Positions 15,411-49,153 of a stretch of DNA of 64,000 bases are shown in pieces. Source of the stretch: Escherichia phage V18; sequence record NC_041937.1. The stretch is one strand, 5' to 3'. Positions within the stretch are counted from its first letter, which is position 1. Every line of letters starts with the position of its first letter. The translations under genes were made by a program, and so were the position numbers. A model generated the notes under the pieces. The model had not been told where the DNA came from and made no database searches. It saw nothing but the letters and a program-made list of their open reading frames with translations.

Positions 15411-15689
15411 ATGAGCTGCGAAAAATCTTTTTTCATCATCATTTACGGTAAGGATAACTGCCCACACTGTGTCAGAGCAAAAGAATTTGCAATCAGCAAA
15501 GGTCTGCCTTTTGTATATAAGACACTTGGCGATGGCTACACAAAAGAAGAGCTTATTGAGAAGTGTAGTCCAATTGTCCCCAGAACGTTGCCGCAGATCT
15601 TCTTAGAAAGCGATCTTGACAGTATCCATATAGGCGGTGCCGACGATTTCATCTCTTTTGTTAAGAATGGTTTTGGAGAGAAAAAGTGA
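15411..15689 (+). CDS. glutaredoxin-like protein (NrdH/NrdC-type)
   Basis: 92 aa; CPHC redox motif near N-terminus. Confidence 0.75.
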   Translation: MSCEKSFFIIIYGKDNCPHCVRAKEFAISKGLPFVYKTLGDGYTKEELIEKCSPIVPRTLPQIFLESDLDSIHIGGADDFISFVKNGFGEKK

Positions 15690-16597
15690 AAGTTGTAAAA
15701 CGGGACGGTAGAGAAGAGTTCTATAACGGAATTAAGGTGATCAAGGCGGCAGAGTCCGCCTTACTTGAGTCTGGACATACTGAAGAAGAAGCTTACCGGA
15801 TCGCCTGCGCGGTTAATGAAGTTGTTGCTAACAATCTACCAACCGACCAGTGCACGATCTCTGTAAAAAATATCCATATCCTTGTTGAAGATGCTCTTAT
15901 GGATATGGGTTTAAAATGTGCAGCCAGAGAATACATCCAGTATAGACAGACAAGAGATAATAACAGAGAGGCAGGTGGAAAACTGCTTGCAGATATTAGT
16001 GGCTTCTTGGATCGAACTTGTGATGAATTTACAAAAGAAAACGCAAATAAGCCCACTAATCATGTACACACTCATCGTGACCTGCTTGCAGGCATCCTTA
16101 GCAAACACCTTGCATCAACACAGATCCTGCCAGACCGTGTTTCAGAAGAGCACAATAAAGGCTTCATCCATGTGCATGATCTTGACTACTTGATCAGTCC
16201 GTTAACAAACTGTTGTTTGGTAAATTATCCAGATATGTTGGAAAACGGATTCAACATTGGCAACGCCCATGTCAGTAAGCCGAAGTCAATAGGGGTTGCA
16301 ACAACAATCCTTAGCCAAATCTCTAGTGCGGTAGCTAGTGCTCAATATGGTGGTCAGACTATGAGCCATATTGATCATTATCTGGCACAGTATGCTGAAG
16401 CGACCTATGAGAAGAACCTTAAATTTTGCCAGGAACATTGGTTGCCAGATGCTGAGACTGTTGCAATGCAAATGACAGATAAAGACGTGTTTGACAGCAT
16501 GCAGACGTTGCTTTATCAGATCAACACACTAACCTCGGTAAACGGTAACCCCTTTTATCACATTAAGTTTAGGTTTGGACACTTCGGTCTTTGGTAG
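15686..16597 (+). CDS. nrdD: anaerobic ribonucleoside-triphosphate reductase, N-terminal segment
   Basis: ATP-cone N-terminus and NrdD-like body; frame lost near 16547, the last residues before the stop are out-of-frame. Confidence 0.8.
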   Translation: MKVVKRDGREEFYNGIKVIKAAESALLESGHTEEEAYRIACAVNEVVANNLPTDQCTISVKNIHILVEDALMDMGLKCAAREYIQYRQTRDNNREAGGKLLADISGFLDRTCDEFTKENANKPTNHVHTHRDLLAGILSKHLASTQILPDRVSEEHNKGFIHVHDLDYLISPLTNCCLVNYPDMLENGFNIGNAHVSKPKSIGVATTILSQISSAVASAQYGGQTMSHIDHYLAQYAEATYEKNLKFCQEHWLPDAETVAMQMTDKDVFDSMQTLLYQINTLTSVNGNPFYHIKFRFGHFGLW

Positions 16598-16796
16598 AAT
16601 GATTACCAAAAACTACCTGAAAGTCCACAAAATGGGTCTTGGTGAAGAACGTATTACACCTGTGTTCCCTAAAGTGCTGTTCTTCCTAGAAGAGGGTGTC
16701 AACATGAACCCTGGGGATCCTAACTACGATTTGAAACGATTAGCTCTGGAATGCTGTGCAGAACGTATCTACCTGACTTCGTATCTGTACCACTAA
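16575..16796 (+). CDS. nrdD: anaerobic ribonucleoside-triphosphate reductase, internal segment in a second frame
   Basis: GLGEERITPVFPK...GDPNYDLKRLALEC matches the NrdD core; frame lost again near 16773 and 16843. Confidence 0.6.
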   Translation: MDTSVFGRMITKNYLKVHKMGLGEERITPVFPKVLFFLEEGVNMNPGDPNYDLKRLALECCAERIYLTSYLYH

Positions 16797-16941
16797 ATAG
16801 AAAAGTGACAGGCTCGACAGATGGCAAAGTAACGAGCATGGGATATGTAGAAGTTTCTTATCGAAATATAGCGACCCTGTAACAGGCGAGGAGAAATACC
16901 TTGGCAGATTTAACTTAGGCGTTGTTAGCCTTAACCTGCCA

Positions 16942-17808
16942 ATGATTGCGGCAAAAGCTAAGACGGAAGGTGTTGATTTCTTTGCAGTTCTTGACGAATA
17001 CTTGGATCTTGCATACGAGGCTCACCTTGTAAGGGTTAATCGTCTAAAAGGAACAAAGGCGGGGCAGAACCCCATCATGTGGTGTGAAGGCGCTCTTGCT
17101 CGCCTGGATCCCGAAGAGAGTATTGATAAACTCTTCTATGACGGGTACGCTTCCATCAGTATTGGGTATATCGGTGTGTATGAAACCTGTCAGATTTTGG
17201 GTAGAGAAGGCGACAAGGCTTTAGCTCTTGGAATCCTTCAGCACATGAGAGATGCTTGTGAGCGATACAAGAAGGAAAGTAGACTAGCATTTAGCTTGTA
17301 CGGCACTCCTTCTGAGAGTCTATGCTATAAAGCTGCAACCTGTCTGGATCGTGAATATCCGGAAGTGTTGAAGCACGAGCATGAATATCTCACCAACAGT
17401 TTCCATCAGCCAGTATGGATAAATAGCTCTCCTTTTGATAAGTGGGAGTATGAGGAAGGTTTTGCTATGATCTCCTCTGGTGGCAACATCGGATACGTAG
17501 AGACACCTAACCTGAAAAACAACCTGGATGCTTTAGAGGCCCTTGTTGACTTCGGGTATAAACACATTATGTATTTTGGTATTAACCAACCTGTAGATAA
17601 ATGTCTCAAGTGTGGTTTCTCTGGTGAGTTCAGTGCAACAGCTAAAGGCTTTGTATGCCCAGAGTGTGGAAACCATGAAGAGGGAACGATCAGTGTAATT
17701 CGACGTGTGTCTGGATACCTTTCCAGTCCTAACTCCCGTCCTTACAATAAAGGTAAGCAAGCGGAAGTTATCGAGCGAGTTAAGCACTACGGAAGTTGTG
17801 GTTGCTGA
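16942..17808 (+). CDS. nrdD: anaerobic ribonucleoside-triphosphate reductase, C-terminal segment
   Basis: CLKCGF...CPECG zinc site and glycyl-radical region IRRVSGYL. Confidence 0.8.
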   Translation: MIAAKAKTEGVDFFAVLDEYLDLAYEAHLVRVNRLKGTKAGQNPIMWCEGALARLDPEESIDKLFYDGYASISIGYIGVYETCQILGREGDKALALGILQHMRDACERYKKESRLAFSLYGTPSESLCYKAATCLDREYPEVLKHEHEYLTNSFHQPVWINSSPFDKWEYEEGFAMISSGGNIGYVETPNLKNNLDALEALVDFGYKHIMYFGINQPVDKCLKCGFSGEFSATAKGFVCPECGNHEEGTISVIRRVSGYLSSPNSRPYNKGKQAEVIERVKHYGSCGC

Positions 17809-18461: not shown

Positions 18462-18491
18462 TTGACAAAGCTTGGTTTAGATAGGTATAAT
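18462..18491 (+). promoter_or_regulatory. sigma70-like promoter (TTGACA-18-TATAAT)
   Basis: -35 at 18462-18467, -10 at 18486-18491. Confidence 0.6.
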
Positions 18492-18522: not shown

Positions 18523-18636
18523 ATGGCTAAAAAAGCCTTGAAGAAGGCGTACAAAAAAGAGATTGCGCTTGAGCTTAAGAAAAAACACAAGCGTGAAAAG
18601 AAACATCATGAAGATGAAGAGGGGGTGCAACAGTGA
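18523..18636 (+). CDS. small lysine-rich protein (37 aa)
   Basis: GAGGAGG RBS 7 nt upstream; MAKKALKKAYKKEIALELKKKHKREKKHHEDEEGVQQ. Confidence 0.3.
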   Translation: MAKKALKKAYKKEIALELKKKHKREKKHHEDEEGVQQ

Positions 18637-18983
18637 CACAAGAACGTATCGATTTGGCTAATAAGTTTGTAGATCTCATTTTGCCACGGTTAGTTACTCA
18701 ACATGCAGATGCTATTTCTACTAATCTTGATGGCTTACGCCTAATGCTGAATCGCACAGATGACCCTCGTATTCGGGCTGATTTAGAAGCCTCTGCCAAC
18801 AAACTGGAAAAGTTCTTGCAAGTAGACACGCAAGAAGCCTTACACAAGATTATGGTGGAAGGTTTCTCTAAAGAATTTACCATTAAAGAGCTTAAGGAGC
18901 TGATCCACCAAGAAGAGATGAATATCCGAGTTCAGGCTGTTGCAAGCAGCATGGAAGCGGCTATTGAAAAACTGTTGCAGTAA
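18633..18983 (+). CDS. hypothetical protein
   Basis: 116 aa ORF, GTG start overlapping previous stop. Confidence 0.4.
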   Translation: MTQERIDLANKFVDLILPRLVTQHADAISTNLDGLRLMLNRTDDPRIRADLEASANKLEKFLQVDTQEALHKIMVEGFSKEFTIKELKELIHQEEMNIRVQAVASSMEAAIEKLLQ

Positions 18984-19021: not shown

Positions 19022-19387
19022 ATGGGTCGAGCTAAAGAAACAAAACGCATGCGTGATGAAGCTAGAGAGGCTCGCAAATCTGATCGCCTGCGTAAGGCTG
19101 CTGAGAAATTTGCTGACGAACGAGAGCACACTGCTCCAGCTCTCCGACCAATGAATAAGAAGCAGCAAAAGTATCTTGATTACCTAGGGTCGCGTAAAAT
19201 TATCATTGTAAACGGAGTGTTTGGGTCTGGTAAAACATTCATGGCATCTGCTATGCAGGTGACCTTCTGCGTAAGAATGAAATTGATAAGATCATTGTTG
19301 CACGTCCTTACGTTCAGACAGGAAAGACTTCAGGATTTAAACCTGGAAATGCAATGCAGAAACTGTGGCCCTATCTTCGAAGCATGA
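19022..19387 (+). CDS. phoH: PhoH-like ATPase, N-terminal segment (frame broken near 19255)
   Basis: Walker A GVFGSGKT; sequence after AMQ is out-of-frame. Confidence 0.7.
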   Translation: MGRAKETKRMRDEAREARKSDRLRKAAEKFADEREHTAPALRPMNKKQQKYLDYLGSRKIIIVNGVFGSGKTFMASAMQVTFCVRMKLIRSLLHVLTFRQERLQDLNLEMQCRNCGPIFEA

Positions 19388-19809
19388 TGGACACGATTTG
19401 TCGTCGTGTTGGCAAAGGTGCTTTTGCCGCAATGCTGGGAGACGGTCAGAACAGCCGTATCGAGATTTGTGAAGTTGAAAGCATTCGTGGTCGTAGTTTC
19501 GATGAGCGATGCTTTGTCCTGATTGACGAGGCACAGCAAACTAACCCTGAAGAAATGTTGTCAATTATCACAAGGATCTCTGATCAAGCCACCCTTGTAA
19601 TTATGGGTGATAATAGCCAACGTGACATCCCTGGTAAATCTGGCCTTGCATGGGTGACGGATTTCTTTACTCGTCATCCAGATCCTGAGGTTGGAATGAT
19701 CAGCTTTGATAGTCCAGACGATGTCGTTCGTTCTGGGTTGGGTCGTCAGATCGCACTCAATCTTATTGAGGATCGTGCAAATCATATTTGGACCCCTGTT
19801 TCCGAGTAA
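19354..19809 (+). CDS. phoH: PhoH-like ATPase, C-terminal segment
   Basis: VLIDEAQ (Walker B) and IMGDNSQRDIPG match PhoH; this frame extends upstream to ~19258. Confidence 0.7.
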   Translation: MQKLWPYLRSMMDTICRRVGKGAFAAMLGDGQNSRIEICEVESIRGRSFDERCFVLIDEAQQTNPEEMLSIITRISDQATLVIMGDNSQRDIPGKSGLAWVTDFFTRHPDPEVGMISFDSPDDVVRSGLGRQIALNLIEDRANHIWTPVSE

Positions 19810-19853: not shown

Positions 19854-19882
19854 TTGACAAATAGGTAAGCTTTAGATATTAT
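19854..19882 (+). promoter_or_regulatory. sigma70-like promoter (TTGACA-17-TATTAT)
   Basis: -35 at 19854-19859, -10 at 19877-19882. Confidence 0.6.
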
Positions 19883-19910: not shown

Positions 19911-20222
19911 ATGGCTACAATACAAGAGAAACTGAATAAAATATACTGCCTGTTTGTCTATAACGGCGAGACAATTTTGGCAAATAAAGGATCCAAGAAT
20001 GTGTGGACCAAGGACAGCGGTGGTAATATAATTAACTTAGCGTTGCTACGTGAGCGCCGACACAGATTCTTTATCGAGTCTCGAATTATTGAAAGCAGCA
20101 CTTGCTACAGAACAGGCGATAAAGTAATTGTTGACAATGATACGTGGTATGTGGTAGACTGGCAATCATTGAGTTGTGATGCTTCTGACAATCGTAAGTA
20201 TTCCATAGTGATTGCTAAATAA
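19911..20222 (+). CDS. hypothetical protein
   Basis: 103 aa ORF downstream of promoter. Confidence 0.4.
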   Translation: MATIQEKLNKIYCLFVYNGETILANKGSKNVWTKDSGGNIINLALLRERRHRFFIESRIIESSTCYRTGDKVIVDNDTWYVVDWQSLSCDASDNRKYSIVIAK

Positions 20223-20282
20223 AGGTAAATGTGAATCAGGTTTAAATAAATAGCTTTCAACTTCCAATATTAAGGATTTCTC

Positions 20283-21329
20283 ATGAATTTAACACCTCGC
20301 AGCACCATGGTACACGGCATGAAAGAAAAACAGAACGGTTTCGAACCTATGAGTAATAAAATGTTTGGTATGCCGGGTGGTATCATGGAAACATACAGCT
20401 ACCCAACACCTGTTGTTGACCACGTTCTTTATATCGACGATTTGGAAGACCTGCAGGATCATATGTCTCGTCTGCAGACGATCCGTATGGCTCAGCCGGA
20501 AGAAAGCATTCGGGTGATCATCAATAGCCCTGGGGGTTGCGTGCACATTGCAATGGCTTATCTACAGGCATTCCGCGAGTCTCAGGCAAGCGTTGTTGCA
20601 CATGCTGAAGGGATGTGCTGCTCTGCGGGAACAATCTTATGGCTGGGTTGTAAAGAACGCACTGTGGCTCCGGACACAGAATTTATGTTCCACTACTATC
20701 AAGGTGGCACTTATGGTAATGGTGTGAACATGAATACTCAGGTCAGCTACTGGAAAAAACGTTTTGAACGCCTGATCGAAAAATACTACGGTGGGGTGCT
20801 GACAGAAGATGAGATCGCATCCATCACAGCTGGTGGTGAAGTGTGGTTGGACGGAGAGGAGCTGGCAGCTCGAACTGGAGCCATCATTCTGGATGAAGGC
20901 AACATACAACGCATCCAGAATGGACAAAAACCTAAAAAGCTTCTGGCAAAAGGTGATGAAGGCGTGTTAGGTGAAGCAGGTCTTCCGGAGATTCACCAGT
21001 GCACCTCTTTAGATGAGCTAGTTCATGCTGTTGAATCTGCGAAAGCGGTTGGTTCGAAAGGTGATGTTCACACTGTGTTCCTGAATCTGCAGATGGAAAG
21101 TGGTGAGACCATTAAGATTGCCTTAGGTGAGATTACCTCAGAAGATCTGCAGCGATTCTCTGTCGTTGAACTTCAAGACATTCTGTCCCAATTGAAGACA
21201 ACCCTGAACGGCGGTGAAGAGGTTAAGGTAAAAGATAAGACTCGCAAGCGTCTGGTGGACAATATTATTAAAACAGCAAAAGAACTCAATGAAAAAATCC
21301 TGGGTGCAGGAATTGTCGAAGAAGCTTAA
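20283..21329 (+). CDS. ClpP-like serine protease with C-terminal extension
   Basis: INSPGG, GMCCSAG (Ser) and FMFHYYQGG (His) match ClpP catalytic blocks; 348 aa. Confidence 0.75.
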   Translation: MNLTPRSTMVHGMKEKQNGFEPMSNKMFGMPGGIMETYSYPTPVVDHVLYIDDLEDLQDHMSRLQTIRMAQPEESIRVIINSPGGCVHIAMAYLQAFRESQASVVAHAEGMCCSAGTILWLGCKERTVAPDTEFMFHYYQGGTYGNGVNMNTQVSYWKKRFERLIEKYYGGVLTEDEIASITAGGEVWLDGEELAARTGAIILDEGNIQRIQNGQKPKKLLAKGDEGVLGEAGLPEIHQCTSLDELVHAVESAKAVGSKGDVHTVFLNLQMESGETIKIALGEITSEDLQRFSVVELQDILSQLKTTLNGGEEVKVKDKTRKRLVDNIIKTAKELNEKILGAGIVEEA

Positions 21330-21342
21330 ACATTAATTCTAA

Positions 21343-21365
21343 AGCCCTCTTCGGAGGGCTTTTAT
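21343..21365 (+). terminator. intrinsic terminator
   Basis: agccctc-ttcg-gagggct hairpin then tttat. Confidence 0.6.
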
Positions 21366-32621: not shown

Positions 32622-33160
32622 TAAGTTCTTCTCTTTTCTTTTACCGAGTAATTCGGGTTTTCTGTTCTCTTCGGTTTGAAGGGGTATGGAGATACACCTG
32701 AGTGAACAGGGTGAACAACCGAACCATTAGCTATGGCATTAGCATGGCGAAGCGGACGGGTGACGAAAGAGGGGCCGGAGGACACCAGTCACTGCCATAT
32801 GATATATGGGTGATAACCTGAAGAGTCTGAATAAGTGTTTAAGTACCAGTCAGAGGAAAAGGTGAATGGTAGCCGAAGGGGGGAGGGGGGTTTCTTGTAT
32901 CTTTAATTTGTATATTATGTATACACTTGTAAACCAATCTAATCTGAATCTGTTTACCACACAAAGCGGATAGAGACAAATATTGCCTATTAAACTTGAA
33001 TTATTTATAGAAAATACCACAACACCCCTTAAGTCTTTGATTTACACACAAATCCTACAGATATTCAACCTCCATATTTAACATACTTGTAACATATTCC
33101 ATACTCTACCTGTCTGATCAATTTCCCAACTACATTCTCATATTTTCCCTGTCTGTACTA

Positions 33161-33356
33161 CCCCTGCCCCGCCGGGAGTCCCGTCATATCTGGCTTTCCA
33201 GCAAATATCACACCCACAAATATCATTGCCTGAAGAGGGTTTCATCCCATAATACCTGCCTTACCTGAAGAGCGCTTCATACACCACGTAAATTTTTTAA
33301 TTGACCTCCCCCTGCCCCTCCGGAGAGGTTGGCTTTTCCCACACAGACCTGAAGAG
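33161..33356. repeat. cluster of short direct repeats
   Basis: cccctgcccc-g/t-ccgg-g-ag at 33161 and 33308; cctgaagag at 33229, 33264, 33348. Confidence 0.5.
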
Positions 33357-33976
33357 TCAGCCAGAAATATCTGAATAGGCCCGATCTGCCCAGTCAGGAG
33401 CCAGTAGCGACTGGAGTGCTGCCAGGCGGACGGAATGGGAATACTTCTCATTCTTATAACAATTCTCAAATATCGAGGCAGTGAGAGAAATTAATAGGCC
33501 AGGCCGTTCACACAGTGGCACAACATTTGCAACCTATCCTGTGGGGATGAATGAGAATACCTATCATTGTGAGAACTATTATCATTACGGGCAATTTAAC
33601 ATAATACCCATTATGCGCACCACTGGCGATACATACAGGGATTGATACCATGAGTTACAGTTTACACACATAACAATTATATTTCTTACTATTTGTGTGG
33701 GATATAGTTAGCAGCCAATAGATTAGATATTGACCTGTAGACTTCCAACCGTCTGGACGTCTAAACGCCCACACACCAAGGGTTATACATACATCGCTGA
33801 ATGTAAACAGGGCCGCAAAAATGCTACCATACCAGTTTGTAAATTTTTCATGCAGCACTTGACAAAGAGGAGAAAAACTTGTCTGACACAATGTCACACA
33901 ATATGACACTTTACACTGGACACACTAGGCACAAAAAAAAAAAACTGCAGTGACTAGGTCACCCCTTCAGGTGTTT

Positions 33977-34171
33977 CTATGACATAATATAAAAGCAGGG
34001 CAACTATTACAAATCTAAAGTTGCCTTGCTTGTTATGTCATGATTAACTAAATACAAGGCAACTATGATCTGATTAATAGTTTGCAGACAAACTATCACG
34101 GGGGTGATGGTTACTGCTTTTATATTATGTCGCGACTCCGTCGCGCCATGCCATTCGTTTGCATAGTTGCC
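33977..34171. repeat. palindrome-flanked iteron cluster
   Basis: 19-bp inverted arms at 33980-33998 and 34114-34132; GGCAACTAT copies at 33999, 34048, 34087 (variant) and inverted at 34017, 34163. Confidence 0.55.
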
Positions 34172-34824
34172 TTATTGTTACAGATAAAATAATTGTATTG
34201 TTAATTATTTCTTATCTTTCTATTAGTCATCTAATGATTCCAGTTAGTATAGTAACGTATAGTAAACATTAGACGACTAAATATTTCTCTGTTTATGATA
34301 ACTCACCGTAATAATTTCGGACTGTTTACGAAAAATGTTGACACCCTGGCTGATTTATGTTATGCAATTTAAACGAATAATTATTTTATGCAGGTATTGA
34401 CTATTCCGTTATTCTATGGTTGGAATAAATACTTAGCAGGCTATAGAATGGTGAGCGTACGTAAATTCTGAGATCTGTCGGCTATAGTTATACCCGATTT
34501 TTCACGTAGAACACGCTTTCGATGCTGTGTAAGTGTATGACTTATAAAGATTTTTAGTTGTTGACAAGATATTGGAGATGTGCATCAGGTTAAAATTTGT
34601 GCAATAGCGGCATTACGTGCACTTTTGGGAGAGAAAACGGGTAAAAATGGACTTGCTACCACACAATGAAAAATTATGCAATAGCTATTTTACATGTATG
34701 TTTGTACAGTGCGGGCAATTGATGGCTCGTCAATTATTCCACTTGCCAGGTAGGGCCGTTTATGGTAGGGGGAAGAGCAGACAAAAAGAAAGGGGCCTAA
34801 GCCCTTGATAATTCAGTTAAAAAA

Positions 34825-35244
34825 TTATAATGATTCGTATATTTCAAAAATCCGATTTGCCAGGTCGTTACGGTAGCGGAATTTTTCCTCACGTTTGATC
34901 ATCAGATCTTTAAAGCCATATTCTTTAAGCACTTCATTAACTTTATGGCGGCACACCTTCATATTATCTTGAGCGTCACCAATAAACTTGTTGCTGTGGT
35001 GCATTGCTTTAATTTCTTCTTCCAGGACCAGGGCAACTACCCGGACCGGATCAAGCTGGTAGGCGGTAACATCGATGCGGCATTGTAGACGGCTTTTAAC
35101 GTCTGCCACCGGATATACTGCAACCTCTTCCCCGTCAACATTGACAATAACTAGTTTACCATCGATCTCGAATCCTTTCGCCGCCGGACCGTGACAAAAA
35201 GCGTTATCAAAGCTATATGCCGGATTATTAGATTTAATGTTCAT
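34825..35244 (-). CDS. hypothetical protein (last gene of minus arm)
   Basis: 139 aa; RBS AGAGGTAAA upstream. Confidence 0.4.
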   Translation of the reverse strand: MNIKSNNPAYSFDNAFCHGPAAKGFEIDGKLVIVNVDGEEVAVYPVADVKSRLQCRIDVTAYQLDPVRVVALVLEEEIKAMHHSNKFIGDAQDNMKVCRHKVNEVLKEYGFKDLMIKREEKFRYRNDLANRIFEIYESL

Positions 35245-48718: not shown

Positions 48719-49153
48719 CTAAAAGTATTCATAGAAGTATCCATCTGGAGCTGGAATTTTTTCATGAATGTAGTAACCAATATATATTCCGGTTTCTCTG
48801 CTACAAGAGTTGTGGGATACCCATTCTTTAAGAACGTTACCATTCATGTCCAACCTCCTTACATTTTTGCACCGTCTACCGCTGGTGCTTCTATGCAACA
48901 GAATATCCTCCGTCTGCTTATCTTTATTTTCTCCCCAAGTCGTTAAACGGATATTATCAAAAGAGTACCCTTTGAAATCATCTATCCTGTCACAAGAAGG
49001 CTTTTTCCTTTTGTCGTATCCGCTGGCTACCCACTGATCATACAACTCTTTGTAACCGTTTAGGTATAGCCACTCCTTAAACTCTTTTTTGGTGTAAGTC
49101 GGAGGAGGGTGACCTCTTTGCTTGCTGTTGCACTTTTGAGCCTTGTACAACAC
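48719..49153 (-). CDS. putative HNH-family endonuclease
   Basis: PSCDRIDDFKGYSFDNIRLTTWGEN resembles the HNH_3 core (DxID...DN...EN). Confidence 0.35.
   Translation of the reverse strand: MLYKAQKCNSKQRGHPPPTYTKKEFKEWLYLNGYKELYDQWVASGYDKRKKPSCDRIDDFKGYSFDNIRLTTWGENKDKQTEDILLHRSTSGRRCKNVRRLDMNGNVLKEWVSHNSCSRETGIYIGYYIHEKIPAPDGYFYEYF

Follow-up and report, generated by a model that had tools for sequence, protein, structure and literature searches.

The DNA analysed here, which we call the window, is a stretch of 64,000 nucleotides from Escherichia phage V18 (NC_041937.1). Positions 20283..21329 on its plus strand contain a real gene, an ORF with an ATG start that encodes a ClpP-like protease of 348 amino acids, orthologous to rV5 gp122 (PHROG 5410). 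Read from the sequence, a Shine-Dalgarno element (AAGGA, 20272..20276, plus strand) lies upstream of the ATG with a spacing of 6 nt. The preceding ORF (19911..20222, plus strand) encodes 103 amino acids and is the ortholog of rV5 gp121 (phrog_5456). A search of Pfam with this ORF gave no match, and its conservation is confined to Vequintavirinae, where a homolog in 4MG is found by tblastn with an E-value of 3e-5. Upstream of the 103-aa ORF is a sigma70-type promoter-like site, TTGACA-17-TATTAT (19854..19882, plus strand), that agrees with the consensus at 11/12 positions and might, on the strength of this consensus match, function as a promoter. Immediately 3' of the protease stop codon, the sequence contains an intrinsic terminator, AAAGCCCTC-TTCG-GAGGGCTTTT (21341..21363, plus strand), and in phage HdK5 a terminator is annotated at the equivalent site, after the ClpP-like protease gene. 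The 103-aa ORF and the protease gene are apparently co-transcribed as one unit that is bracketed by the promoter-like site and the terminator.

The surroundings of this unit are also conserved. A gene for a PhoH-like ATPase (19022..19809, plus strand) lies upstream and a DNA methyltransferase gene lies downstream, and this context is found in the window, rV5, JeffSchatz, pangalan, HdK5, 4MG and P7_Pc. The window corresponds to JeffSchatz coordinates 127,255 to 61,865, which is the half of the genome devoted to replication, nucleotide metabolism and early genes. In expression data for Barbavirus, the CLP_protease and PhoH genes belong to expression cluster 1 and are near-maximal at the first time point, and the genes for the portal, the peptidase and the major capsid protein (MCP) belong to the late cluster 2. 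From the promoter consensus match and this Barbavirus homolog, which is 25% identical, we infer that the V18 protease is expressed early or in the middle of infection.

The gene itself is already known. It is the annotated 'ClpP-like protease' of rV5-type E. coli phages, its annotation dates from the rV5 genome paper (2013), and it is catalogued as PHROG 5410. The PHROG 5410 profile covers residues 24-344 of the V18 protein (profile positions 4-322 of 323, E-value 2.3e-153), and the C-terminal part alone matches this profile with an E-value of 6.5e-43. The V18 protein is 100% identical to that of vB_EcoM_HdK5, and the protein is found at 96-99% identity in more than 100 Vequintavirus genomes. 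It is therefore a member of the PHROG 5410 family, represented by the rV5 gp122 'ClpP ATP-dependent protease subunit', with the same PhoH, 103-aa ORF and methyltransferase neighbours and no substantive difference. This family has been annotated by homology only, and the literature that we searched contains no experimental characterisation of it. Our search of the literature on phage-encoded ClpP-like proteins for functional, biochemical or genetic studies, activity or substrates found nothing relevant, and the gene is not discussed in the BASEL paper.

More distant relatives are the short non-structural ClpP-like proteins of other phages (PHROG 1827; ICP1, Otagovirus, Pakpunavirus, T5-like, Barbavirus, BS46 and Schizotequatrovirus). 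These proteins have the ClpP-fold core in common with the V18 protein, their Ser and His are invariant, and their genes lie in replication or nucleotide-metabolism regions, often right after PhoH. However, they are only 20-36% identical to the V18 protein and do not have a C-terminal domain of the V18 type. The homologs in T4-like and T5-like phages are located inside DNA-metabolism gene clusters.

The ClpP-fold protease domain comprises residues ~45-212 (20415..20918, plus strand). AF2 models it with a pLDDT of about 85-93, and Foldseek matches it to ClpP structures with a probability of 1.0 and a target-normalised TM-score of 0.65-0.73. The Pfam CLP_protease model, PF00574, matches residues 59-168 (E-value 2e-12, 47.7 bits, cutoff 20.2). 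The preliminary description had recognised ClpP in the N-terminal part of the protein and had pointed out three catalytic blocks, and both observations stand: the blocks are INSPGG at residues 80-85, GMCCSAG at 110-116 and HYYQGG at 137-142. We placed the catalytic Ser and His using HMMER alignments to solved ClpPs. In these alignments, the predicted nucleophile is Ser114 in GMCCSAG (codon 20622..20624, plus strand), aligned to ClpP Ser97, and the predicted general base is His137 in FMFHYYQGG (codon 20691..20693, plus strand), aligned to ClpP His122. Glu186 (codon 20838..20840, plus strand) aligns to the position of ClpP Asp171. Ser114, His137 and Gly84-Gly85, which occupy the ClpP oxyanion-hole position, do not vary among 27 family members or across 9 phage lineages, and such invariance of the catalytic site at 20-25% identity is a signature of retained catalysis. 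Judging from these alignments, the V18 protein is a serine protease that is probably active.

In the AF2 model, the ClpP fold stops at about residue 212 and is followed by a disordered linker and then by another folded region. The linker (residues ~213-240; 20919..21002, plus strand) has low confidence (pLDDT about 40), is length-variable and is rich in indels in the family alignment. The C-terminal domain (residues ~241-342; 21003..21308, plus strand) is an alpha/beta domain composed of a helix, a beta-hairpin and three helices, in which F292 and E296 are invariant. The preliminary description regarded this extension as a long unique domain. The extension is indeed real and folded, but it is not unique to this gene, as it is conserved throughout the Vequintavirinae family. 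A profile of the domain, searched against 1.84e9 representatives, found only 7 hits, namely five ClpP-like proteins (304-375 aa) and two short fragments, all of them attributable to the Vequintavirinae ClpP-like family; among the 1.84 billion representatives, this search found no other architecture that includes the domain. For Foldseek, the domain was modelled separately by AF2 (mean pLDDT 66.5). This model had nothing below an E-value of 0.5 in the PDB, and its one match in BFVD, a protein of 303 aa, probably belongs to the family. Comparison with Pfam gave no match, with MpsC and Scm3 weak and below threshold. The ClpP-like proteins of ICP1 and F99 have C-terminal extensions of their own, but these are not detectably homologous to that of V18 (no similarity by hhalign, probabilities ~0.1%). 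On its flexible linker, the V18 domain probably serves in the recognition of substrates or partners, or in regulation.

Because the protein has the ClpP fold with its Ser and His in place, and because GenBank and PHROG annotations use the name, it might seem that it is a true ClpP subunit. Such a subunit would form rings that are fed by host ClpX/ClpA, alone or mixed with host ClpP, and would redirect the host's ATP-dependent proteolysis. Bacterial ClpP (MEROPS S14; TIGR00493) does share with the V18 protein the fold (TM about 0.7), the Ser and His positions, the INSPGG oxyanion-hole motif and an acidic residue at the Asp171 position (Glu186 in V18), and a handle-like GG.YG.G and long-helix segment is present as well. 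However, the identity is only ~20%, and the V18 protein has an extra C-terminal region of 136 aa. Among ClpP models, it passes the broad Pfam domain model alone: it scores 33.2 bits with TIGR00493 clpP against a cutoff of 308.6 bits, and 21-39 bits with the remaining curated ClpP models, whose cutoffs are 228-361. Scores of 33-39 bits against curated cutoffs of 228-309 argue against a true ClpP subunit.

Features of ClpP that serve its assembly and its ATPase partners differ in the V18 protein. In ClpP, Glu169 and Arg170 form a ring-ring 'oligomerisation sensor'; the V18 residues at these positions, just before the triad acid, are the invariant Gly184-Gly185. A pLDDT of about 30 marks the N-terminal 42 residues as disordered, and their conservation is poor; the alignment to Pfam starts at profile position 32, and neither the alignment nor the AF2 model contains a counterpart of the N-terminal axial loop or helix A of ClpP. 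We also aligned the IGF/IGL docking-pocket residues of ClpP that are listed in bioRxiv 10.1101/820209, using an E. coli ClpP reference sequence that we checked to be identical to PDB 3mt6. Five alignable hydrophobic pocket residues, Y60, F82, I90, M92 and F112, correspond to R77, E99, H107, E109 and T127, all of which are invariant in the family, and two more, L48 and F49, fall in a deletion in the V18 family; at ~20% identity, this alignment can be trusted around the INSPGG, Ser and His motifs but not in the C-terminal strand (L189, R192). As neither the docking pocket nor the N-terminal gating loops are conserved, the protein most likely functions independently of the host unfoldases ClpX/ClpA, and we predict that it probably cannot dock these motors. 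We consider it unlikely that the protein is a true ClpP subunit. Given the failure of the curated ClpP models and the absence of the ATPase-docking surface, 'ATP-dependent Clp protease proteolytic subunit' is probably a misleading label.

The PhoH-like P-loop ATPase encoded upstream might instead be the partner of the protease. Together they would be a phage two-component machine for ATP-dependent proteolysis or for coupled RNA and protein turnover. We investigated this linkage in 10 lineages, sampled by hand from the phage collection. In 6 of these, PhoH is encoded upstream in the same orientation, no more than 2 kb away and with 0-4 small genes in between; the linked phages are Vequintavirinae (rV5, 4MG, P7_Pc), ICP1, Vibrio F99, Otagovirus, Barbavirus and BS46. 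The PhoH stop and the ClpP-like start overlap by 8 nt in Otagovirus, the gap between the genes is 54 nt in Barbavirus, and the shared early expression cluster in Barbavirus is also consistent with a partnership. However, PhoH was not found within ~4 kb in the other four lineages (Pakpunavirus, the T5-like phage, Schizotequatrovirus and the N4-like phage). Moreover, several of the linked lineages share a larger conserved module, with dCMP deaminase and DNA ligase downstream; inherited synteny, not functional coupling, may therefore account for the linkage. To our knowledge, PhoH is not an unfoldase. In rV5-type phages, the promoter-like site separates the PhoH gene from the protease unit, and in the window the PhoH gene is frameshifted (possibly a sequencing error) while the protease gene is intact. 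The chance that the two proteins form such a machine therefore appears to be small.

A bolder version is that PhoH replaces ClpX/ClpA as the partner of the ClpP-fold protease, and that lineage-specific C-terminal appendages choose the targets, e.g., substrates in host defence or takeover. We regard this version as a long shot. If it were true, a function in this machine could be assigned to phage PhoH, which is among the most widespread uncharacterised 'auxiliary' phage genes. The frequent linkage offers, in any case, a way of probing by experiment two phage genes that are both widespread.

The preliminary description had proposed that the protein could be a displaced prohead protease, encoded outside the structural module, having noted that the gene is not next to capsid genes in the window. 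The latter remark is accurate; there are no capsid genes within the 64,000-nt window, which represents the replication, metabolism and early half of the genome. In JeffSchatz, whose nucleotide identity is ~98%, capsid and scaffold genes can be located: the head module occupies 2.3-6.8 kb and the ClpP-like gene 105.9-106.9 kb, i.e., they are separated by ~34 kb across the genome ends or by ~99 kb on the linear map. This head module has a protease of its own, a Peptidase_S78_2/XkdF protein (E-value 9e-18, phrog_1530) that is encoded between the portal and the scaffold/decoration/MCP genes. By comparison, a genuine ClpP-type head protease is found in the layout terL-portal-protease-MCP in phage K283. 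The C-terminal profile has no similarity to the phage scaffold protein by hhalign (probability ~0.1%). With both adjacency to the MCP gene and a scaffold-like extension absent, the gene is non-structural, and its product is not the capsid-maturation enzyme.

It is conceivable that the protein is a second protease for capsid or virion maturation, with a C-terminal domain that targets the prohead as in other head proteases and in protease-scaffold fusions. Capsid-targeted proteases typically have a C-terminal extension, and the best curated match of the V18 protein is NF045542, 'head maturation protease, ClpP-related', although its score of 60.4 bits is half of the cutoff of 120. Several PHROG 'head maturation protease' families also match, with 53-79 bits. 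The ClpP-related head-maturation proteases (NF045542; PHROGs 1684, 94, 2976 and 133) share with the V18 protein the core fold, the Ser and His motifs and the lack of the ClpP N-terminal region; the V18 gene differs in lying outside the head module. Head proteases are often lost from the capsid after self-digestion. Mass spectrometry of the rV5 virion found 19 proteins and gp122 is not among them, but this absence is weak evidence because only 19 proteins were found. In the virion proteome of W70, the head-module protease (phrog_1530) is present and phrog_5410 is absent, and the sole protease entry in the virion table of CB7 is the head-module 'prohead core protein protease'. In view of the dedicated XkdF/S78 head protease of the relatives, these virion data, the distance to the head module, a C-terminal domain unlike the scaffold protein and the early Barbavirus homolog, the idea of a displaced prohead protease does not hold, and a second maturation protease is improbable.

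The third triad position is less conserved than the other catalytic residues: it is Glu in 5 and Gln in 22 of the 27 Vequintavirinae sequences, and Asp or Glu in 7/9 phage lineages. The frequency of Gln means that the triad is not strictly conserved, and that activity could be weak or dyad-based. That the protein is a catalytically inert ClpP-fold protein acting by binding, e.g., as a decoy, inhibitor or assembly factor, might be suggested by this Gln and by the large overall divergence from ClpP, but it is very improbable given the invariance of Ser114, His137 and Gly84-Gly85 across such divergent lineages.

We therefore favor, with a probability of about 0.62, the explanation that the gene encodes a non-structural ClpP-fold serine protease of early or middle expression that is independent of ClpX/ClpA and distinct from the dedicated prohead protease. 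In this enzyme, Ser114 would be the nucleophile and His137 the general base, and Glu186 occupies the third position of the triad. The protease is encoded in the nucleotide-metabolism and replication module, with another gene providing the dedicated prohead protease, and it would act on cytoplasmic proteins as a self-contained peptidase or processing protease. Targeting of host proteins, which the preliminary description had also raised, is compatible with all of our findings, but phage proteins are equally possible targets. The V18 protein is one of the 'second' ClpP-like proteins of phages, a group that is widespread and lies nearer to the ClpP-related head-maturation proteases of phages than to the ClpP of cells.

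Early 'second proteases' form a broad class, to which the ClpP-like protease belongs and which is represented in large lytic phages, including ICP1 and PAK_P1-like, T5-like, T4-like, N4-like and rV5-like phages. As several such phages are candidates for therapy or biocontrol, knowledge of the targets of an early phage protease would have practical value.

Some minor observations concern other parts of the window. The frameshift in the PhoH gene is caused by a 1-nt deletion at ~19251, and the gene is intact in pangalan and HdK5. We considered whether this frameshift is common to isolates, some of which carry 'PhoH-like protein (x2)' annotations, as a shared frameshift would speak against a partnership with PhoH; we rejected the idea, because the extra 'PhoH' is a 103-aa ORF with a wrong label. 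Split ORFs in nrdD, with apparent frameshifts at 16545-16863, might have been explained by an intron, but we favor small indels, because this gene aligns collinearly with its JeffSchatz counterpart and gave no Rfam hit. A further promoter consensus site, with a 12/12 match, is located at 18462-18491.

The gene at 20283-21329 (+), which has an ATG start with a Shine-Dalgarno sequence 5' of it (AAGGA, 20272-20276, +), encodes a ClpP-like protease of 348 aa. On the most likely reading the protein is a self-contained serine enzyme of the ClpP fold that is expressed in the early or middle phase of infection, that would be active in the infected cytoplasm independently of ClpX/ClpA, and whose targets would be host or phage proteins chosen with the help of its C-terminal domain. 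We considered this reading beside rivals ranked by our estimates, in the order of a ClpP subunit, a machine coupled to PhoH, an auxiliary capsid protease and an inert binder.

The preliminary description quoted three ClpP motifs, and the protein has all of them: INSPGG (residues 80-85), GMCCSAG (110-116) and HYYQGG (137-142), a match well beyond chance. The Pfam CLP_protease model matches residues 59-168 above its gathering score (E 2e-12), PHROG 5410 matches residues 24-344, including the C-terminal part (E 2.3e-153), and in HMMER alignments Ser114 and His137 fall exactly on the catalytic Ser and His of solved ClpP structures. The window comes from an rV5-type Escherichia myovirus (Vequintavirinae, Vequintavirus), and over 4 kb around the gene it shares 97-98% identity with more than 100 phage genomes. 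Neither the gene nor its annotation is new: its product is 100% identical to the deposited protein of vB_EcoM_HdK5, and it is the ortholog of rV5 gp122, which was named 'ClpP (ATP-dependent) protease subunit' in 2013 (PMC3606486, Table S3). GenBank names include 'ClpP-like protease' and 'ATP-dependent Clp protease proteolytic subunit'. Nothing in the gene itself would surprise a specialist; what is added here is a firm distinction between this protein and the head protease, grounds for regarding the ClpP-subunit name as a misnomer, and the linkage to PhoH. We found no experimental work on this class of ClpP-like phage proteins in the searchable literature.

A true ClpP subunit that depends on ClpX/ClpA, as the database names would have it, is quite unlikely. 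Among NCBIfam models the highest score is that of NF045542 ('head maturation protease, ClpP-related'), 60 bits where the cutoff is 120, while TIGR00493 (clpP) scores 33 bits against 308.6. Homologs in ICP1, Otagovirus, Pakpunavirus and a T5-like phage give the same pattern, so these ClpP-like phage proteins form their own group, one that by these scores stands somewhat nearer the head proteases of phages than cellular ClpP. We aligned the protein to E. coli ClpP (identical to PDB 3mt6), an alignment that can be trusted around the conserved motifs but not in the strand at the very C terminus. At the pocket where the IGL/IGF loops dock, as listed in a ClpAP cryo-EM study (bioRxiv 10.1101/820209), the replacements from E. 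coli to V18 are Y60 to R77, F82 to E99, I90 to H107, M92 to E109 and F112 to T127. These five polar or charged residues are invariant in 27/27 family members; at the other pocket positions Y62 is I or V, L114 is A or S, and L48 and F49 lie in a deletion. The region of the ClpP N-terminal axial loop and helix A has no counterpart in the V18 protease. Given these losses from the pocket and the N terminus, canonical docking of host ClpX/ClpA is unlikely, and 'ATP-dependent' in the database name is unsupported. In addition, Glu169 and Arg170, which precede the triad acid in E. coli ClpP and act as a ring-ring oligomerisation sensor, are replaced by an invariant Gly184-Gly185.

The sole recurring clue to a partner is PhoH. 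In 6 of the 10 lineages sampled, a gene for a PhoH-like ATPase precedes the protease gene in the same orientation, with 0-4 small genes between the two: Vequintavirinae (rV5, 4MG, P7_Pc), ICP1, Vibrio phage F99, Otagovirus (PhoH stop and protease start overlapping by 8 nt), Barbavirus (54 nt between the genes) and Acinetobacter phage BS46. The BS46 homolog is annotated 'hypothetical protein' (orf12, 1826-2650 of the BS46 locus), and we recognized it by tblastn with the PhoH of the related phage JeffSchatz (E 3e-29). In the other four, namely Pakpunavirus, a T5-like Klebsiella phage, a Schizotequatrovirus and an N4-like Dorisvirus, there is no PhoH gene within about 4 kb of the protease. A DNA methyltransferase gene lies directly 3' of the protease in Vequintavirinae and Barbavirus. 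However, several PhoH-linked phages share a larger module with a DNA ligase downstream, and the linkage may therefore be inherited gene order instead of functional coupling. A PhoH-coupled machine is no better a prospect than the ClpP subunit, and its specific form, in which PhoH would replace ClpX/ClpA and the C-terminal appendages would pick targets, is slightly less likely. The V18 PhoH-like gene itself (19022-19809, +) has lost one nucleotide at about 19251 (CTGC-TATG, not a homopolymer), which splits it into two ORFs, 19022-19387 and 19354-19809. It is intact, at 789 nt, in JeffSchatz, pangalan, HdK5 and rV5, so that the V18 copy is either a true pseudogene or a sequencing error.

A sigma70-like promoter match (TTGACA-17-TATTAT, 19854-19882) and a clean intrinsic terminator (AAAGCCCTC-TTCG-GAGGGCTTTT, 21341-21363, also annotated in HdK5) bracket the protease gene and the 103-aa ORF 5' of it (19911-20222, +; phrog_5456, no Pfam match), and the two are apparently transcribed together. 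Because this promoter is of host type, as judged by its consensus match, early or middle expression of the protease is suggested. A distant homolog lends independent support by analogy: in the transcriptome of a Rheinheimera Barbavirus (PMC9305737, supplementary files 5 and 6), CLP_protease gp072 and PhoH gp073 fall in expression cluster 1 and are close to their maximum at the first time point, and the late cluster 2 includes the portal gp096, the major capsid protein gp099 and, as a gene of its own, the 'peptidase' gp097. The 103-aa ORF is labelled 'PhoH-like protein' in pangalan (916-1227 of locus L016) and in the related records of magaca, nomo, inoa and naswa, where 'PhoH-like protein (x2)' is listed; the label appears to be an annotation error that has been propagated. 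Further upstream, a perfect 12/12 sigma70 consensus (TTGACA-18-TATAAT, 18462-18491, +) precedes a 116-aa ORF (18633-18983; phrog_7650, function not assigned), suggesting strong expression of this block by host RNAP.

It had been proposed that the protein is a prohead protease displaced from the structural module. As had been said, the window has no structural genes; it is collinear with JeffSchatz coordinates 127,255 to 61,865, a half of the genome with DNA ligase, exonuclease, thymidylate synthase, NrdAB/NrdDG, PhoH, early genes, DNA polymerase and helicase. In JeffSchatz (about 98% nucleotide identity), a canonical head module lies at 0.7-6.8 kb (terminase, portal, 'prohead protease', scaffold, decoration protein and major capsid protein) and the ClpP-like gene at 105.9-106.9 kb, a distance of about 99 kb along the linear map, or of about 34 kb when counted through the genome ends. 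The head-module protease matches Pfam Peptidase_S78_2 (XkdF; E 9e-18) and phrog_1530, and the same gene in rV5 is gp63, between the portal gp64 and gp62, a structural protein confirmed by mass spectrometry (MS). The rV5 gp122 protein (38,541 Da) is absent from the 19 proteins of a shallow virion MS list. In Septuagintavirus W70, the virion proteome includes the phrog_1530 protease and no phrog_5410 protein, and the Certrevirus CB7 virion table has only the head-module 'prohead core protein protease', a phrog_5410 gene being unconfirmed in both phages. Profile comparison shows no similarity between the C-terminal domain and the scaffold protein of the phage. Vibrio phage K283 has a genuine ClpP-type head protease, a weak match to the same query, but its layout of terL-portal-protease-MCP is unlike that of the V18 gene. 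With a separate XkdF protease in the head module, no gp122 among the listed rV5 virion proteins and no scaffold similarity, the proposal is not supported, and the ClpP-like protein is not the prohead protease. Head proteases can exit the capsid after maturation, which limits what absence from virions can say; even so, an auxiliary capsid protease is very unlikely.

An AlphaFold2 model built from 27 family sequences (mean pLDDT 74) is confident at residues 45-212 (about 85-93), disordered at 1-42 and about 222-236, and folded at about 241-342 (about 70-90). The N-terminal domain matches dozens of ClpP structures in Foldseek with probability 1.0 and a target-normalised TM of 0.65-0.73, at 17-23% sequence identity. 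Ser114, His137 and the Gly84-Gly85 pair of INSPGG, which sits at the oxyanion-hole position of ClpP, are invariant in the family alignment and remain so with 8 more phage lineages at only 20-36% identity. At the position of ClpP Asp171, V18 has Glu186, making a Ser-His-Glu triad plausible. This position is Gln in 22/27 and Glu in 5/27 Vequintavirinae, and Asp or Glu in 7/9 and Gln in 2/9 phage lineages. Since it is often Gln, the family does not strictly need an acid here, and the alignments suggest that Ser-His does the essential chemistry. An inert ClpP-fold binder is the least probable of the rivals.

In the C-terminal extension, a variable, disordered linker is followed by a helix, a beta-hairpin and three helices, with F292 and E296 invariant and L297, R321 and L324 nearly so. 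The preliminary description called this domain long and unique; it is indeed a folded extension with no relative in the PDB (Foldseek; top match E 0.5), but it is not unique to this gene and is conserved across the Vequintavirinae family. Its profile gave seven matches among 1.84 billion representative proteins: five are ClpP-like and 304-375 aa long, and the other two are short pieces of proteins of this kind. In BFVD, Foldseek gives one match, to a protein of 303 aa that probably belongs to the family. Homologs in ICP1 (326 aa) and Vibrio F99 (308 aa) carry C-terminal extensions of their own, with no Pfam domain and no detectable relation to that of V18. A conserved protease core with lineage-specific appendages would fit a targeting, adaptor or regulatory role.

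Elsewhere in the window, nrdD (15899-17808, +) has several small indels between 16545 and 16863, leaving ORFs at 15686-16597 and 16942-17808. Its collinearity with the intact copy in JeffSchatz (636 aa) rules out an intron or homing-endonuclease insertion, and the region has no Rfam match. An ORF-poor region of about 2 kb (~32800-34800), where two convergent transcription blocks meet, could be regulatory or replication-related; its JeffSchatz equivalent (90,967-93,522) is unannotated. We found no tRNAs or Rfam families in it. Its repeats are a perfect inverted one of 18 nt (33981-33998 / 34114-34131) and, interleaved, three copies of TAAAAGCAGGGCAACTAT (at 33990, at 34049 and, in inverted orientation, at 34163). 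Three segments missing from JeffSchatz, at 1595-2074 (+), 34825-35244 (-) and 48719-49153 (-), each contain one orphan ORF (159, 139 and 144 aa) with no Pfam match, and are probably strain-specific accessory genes.
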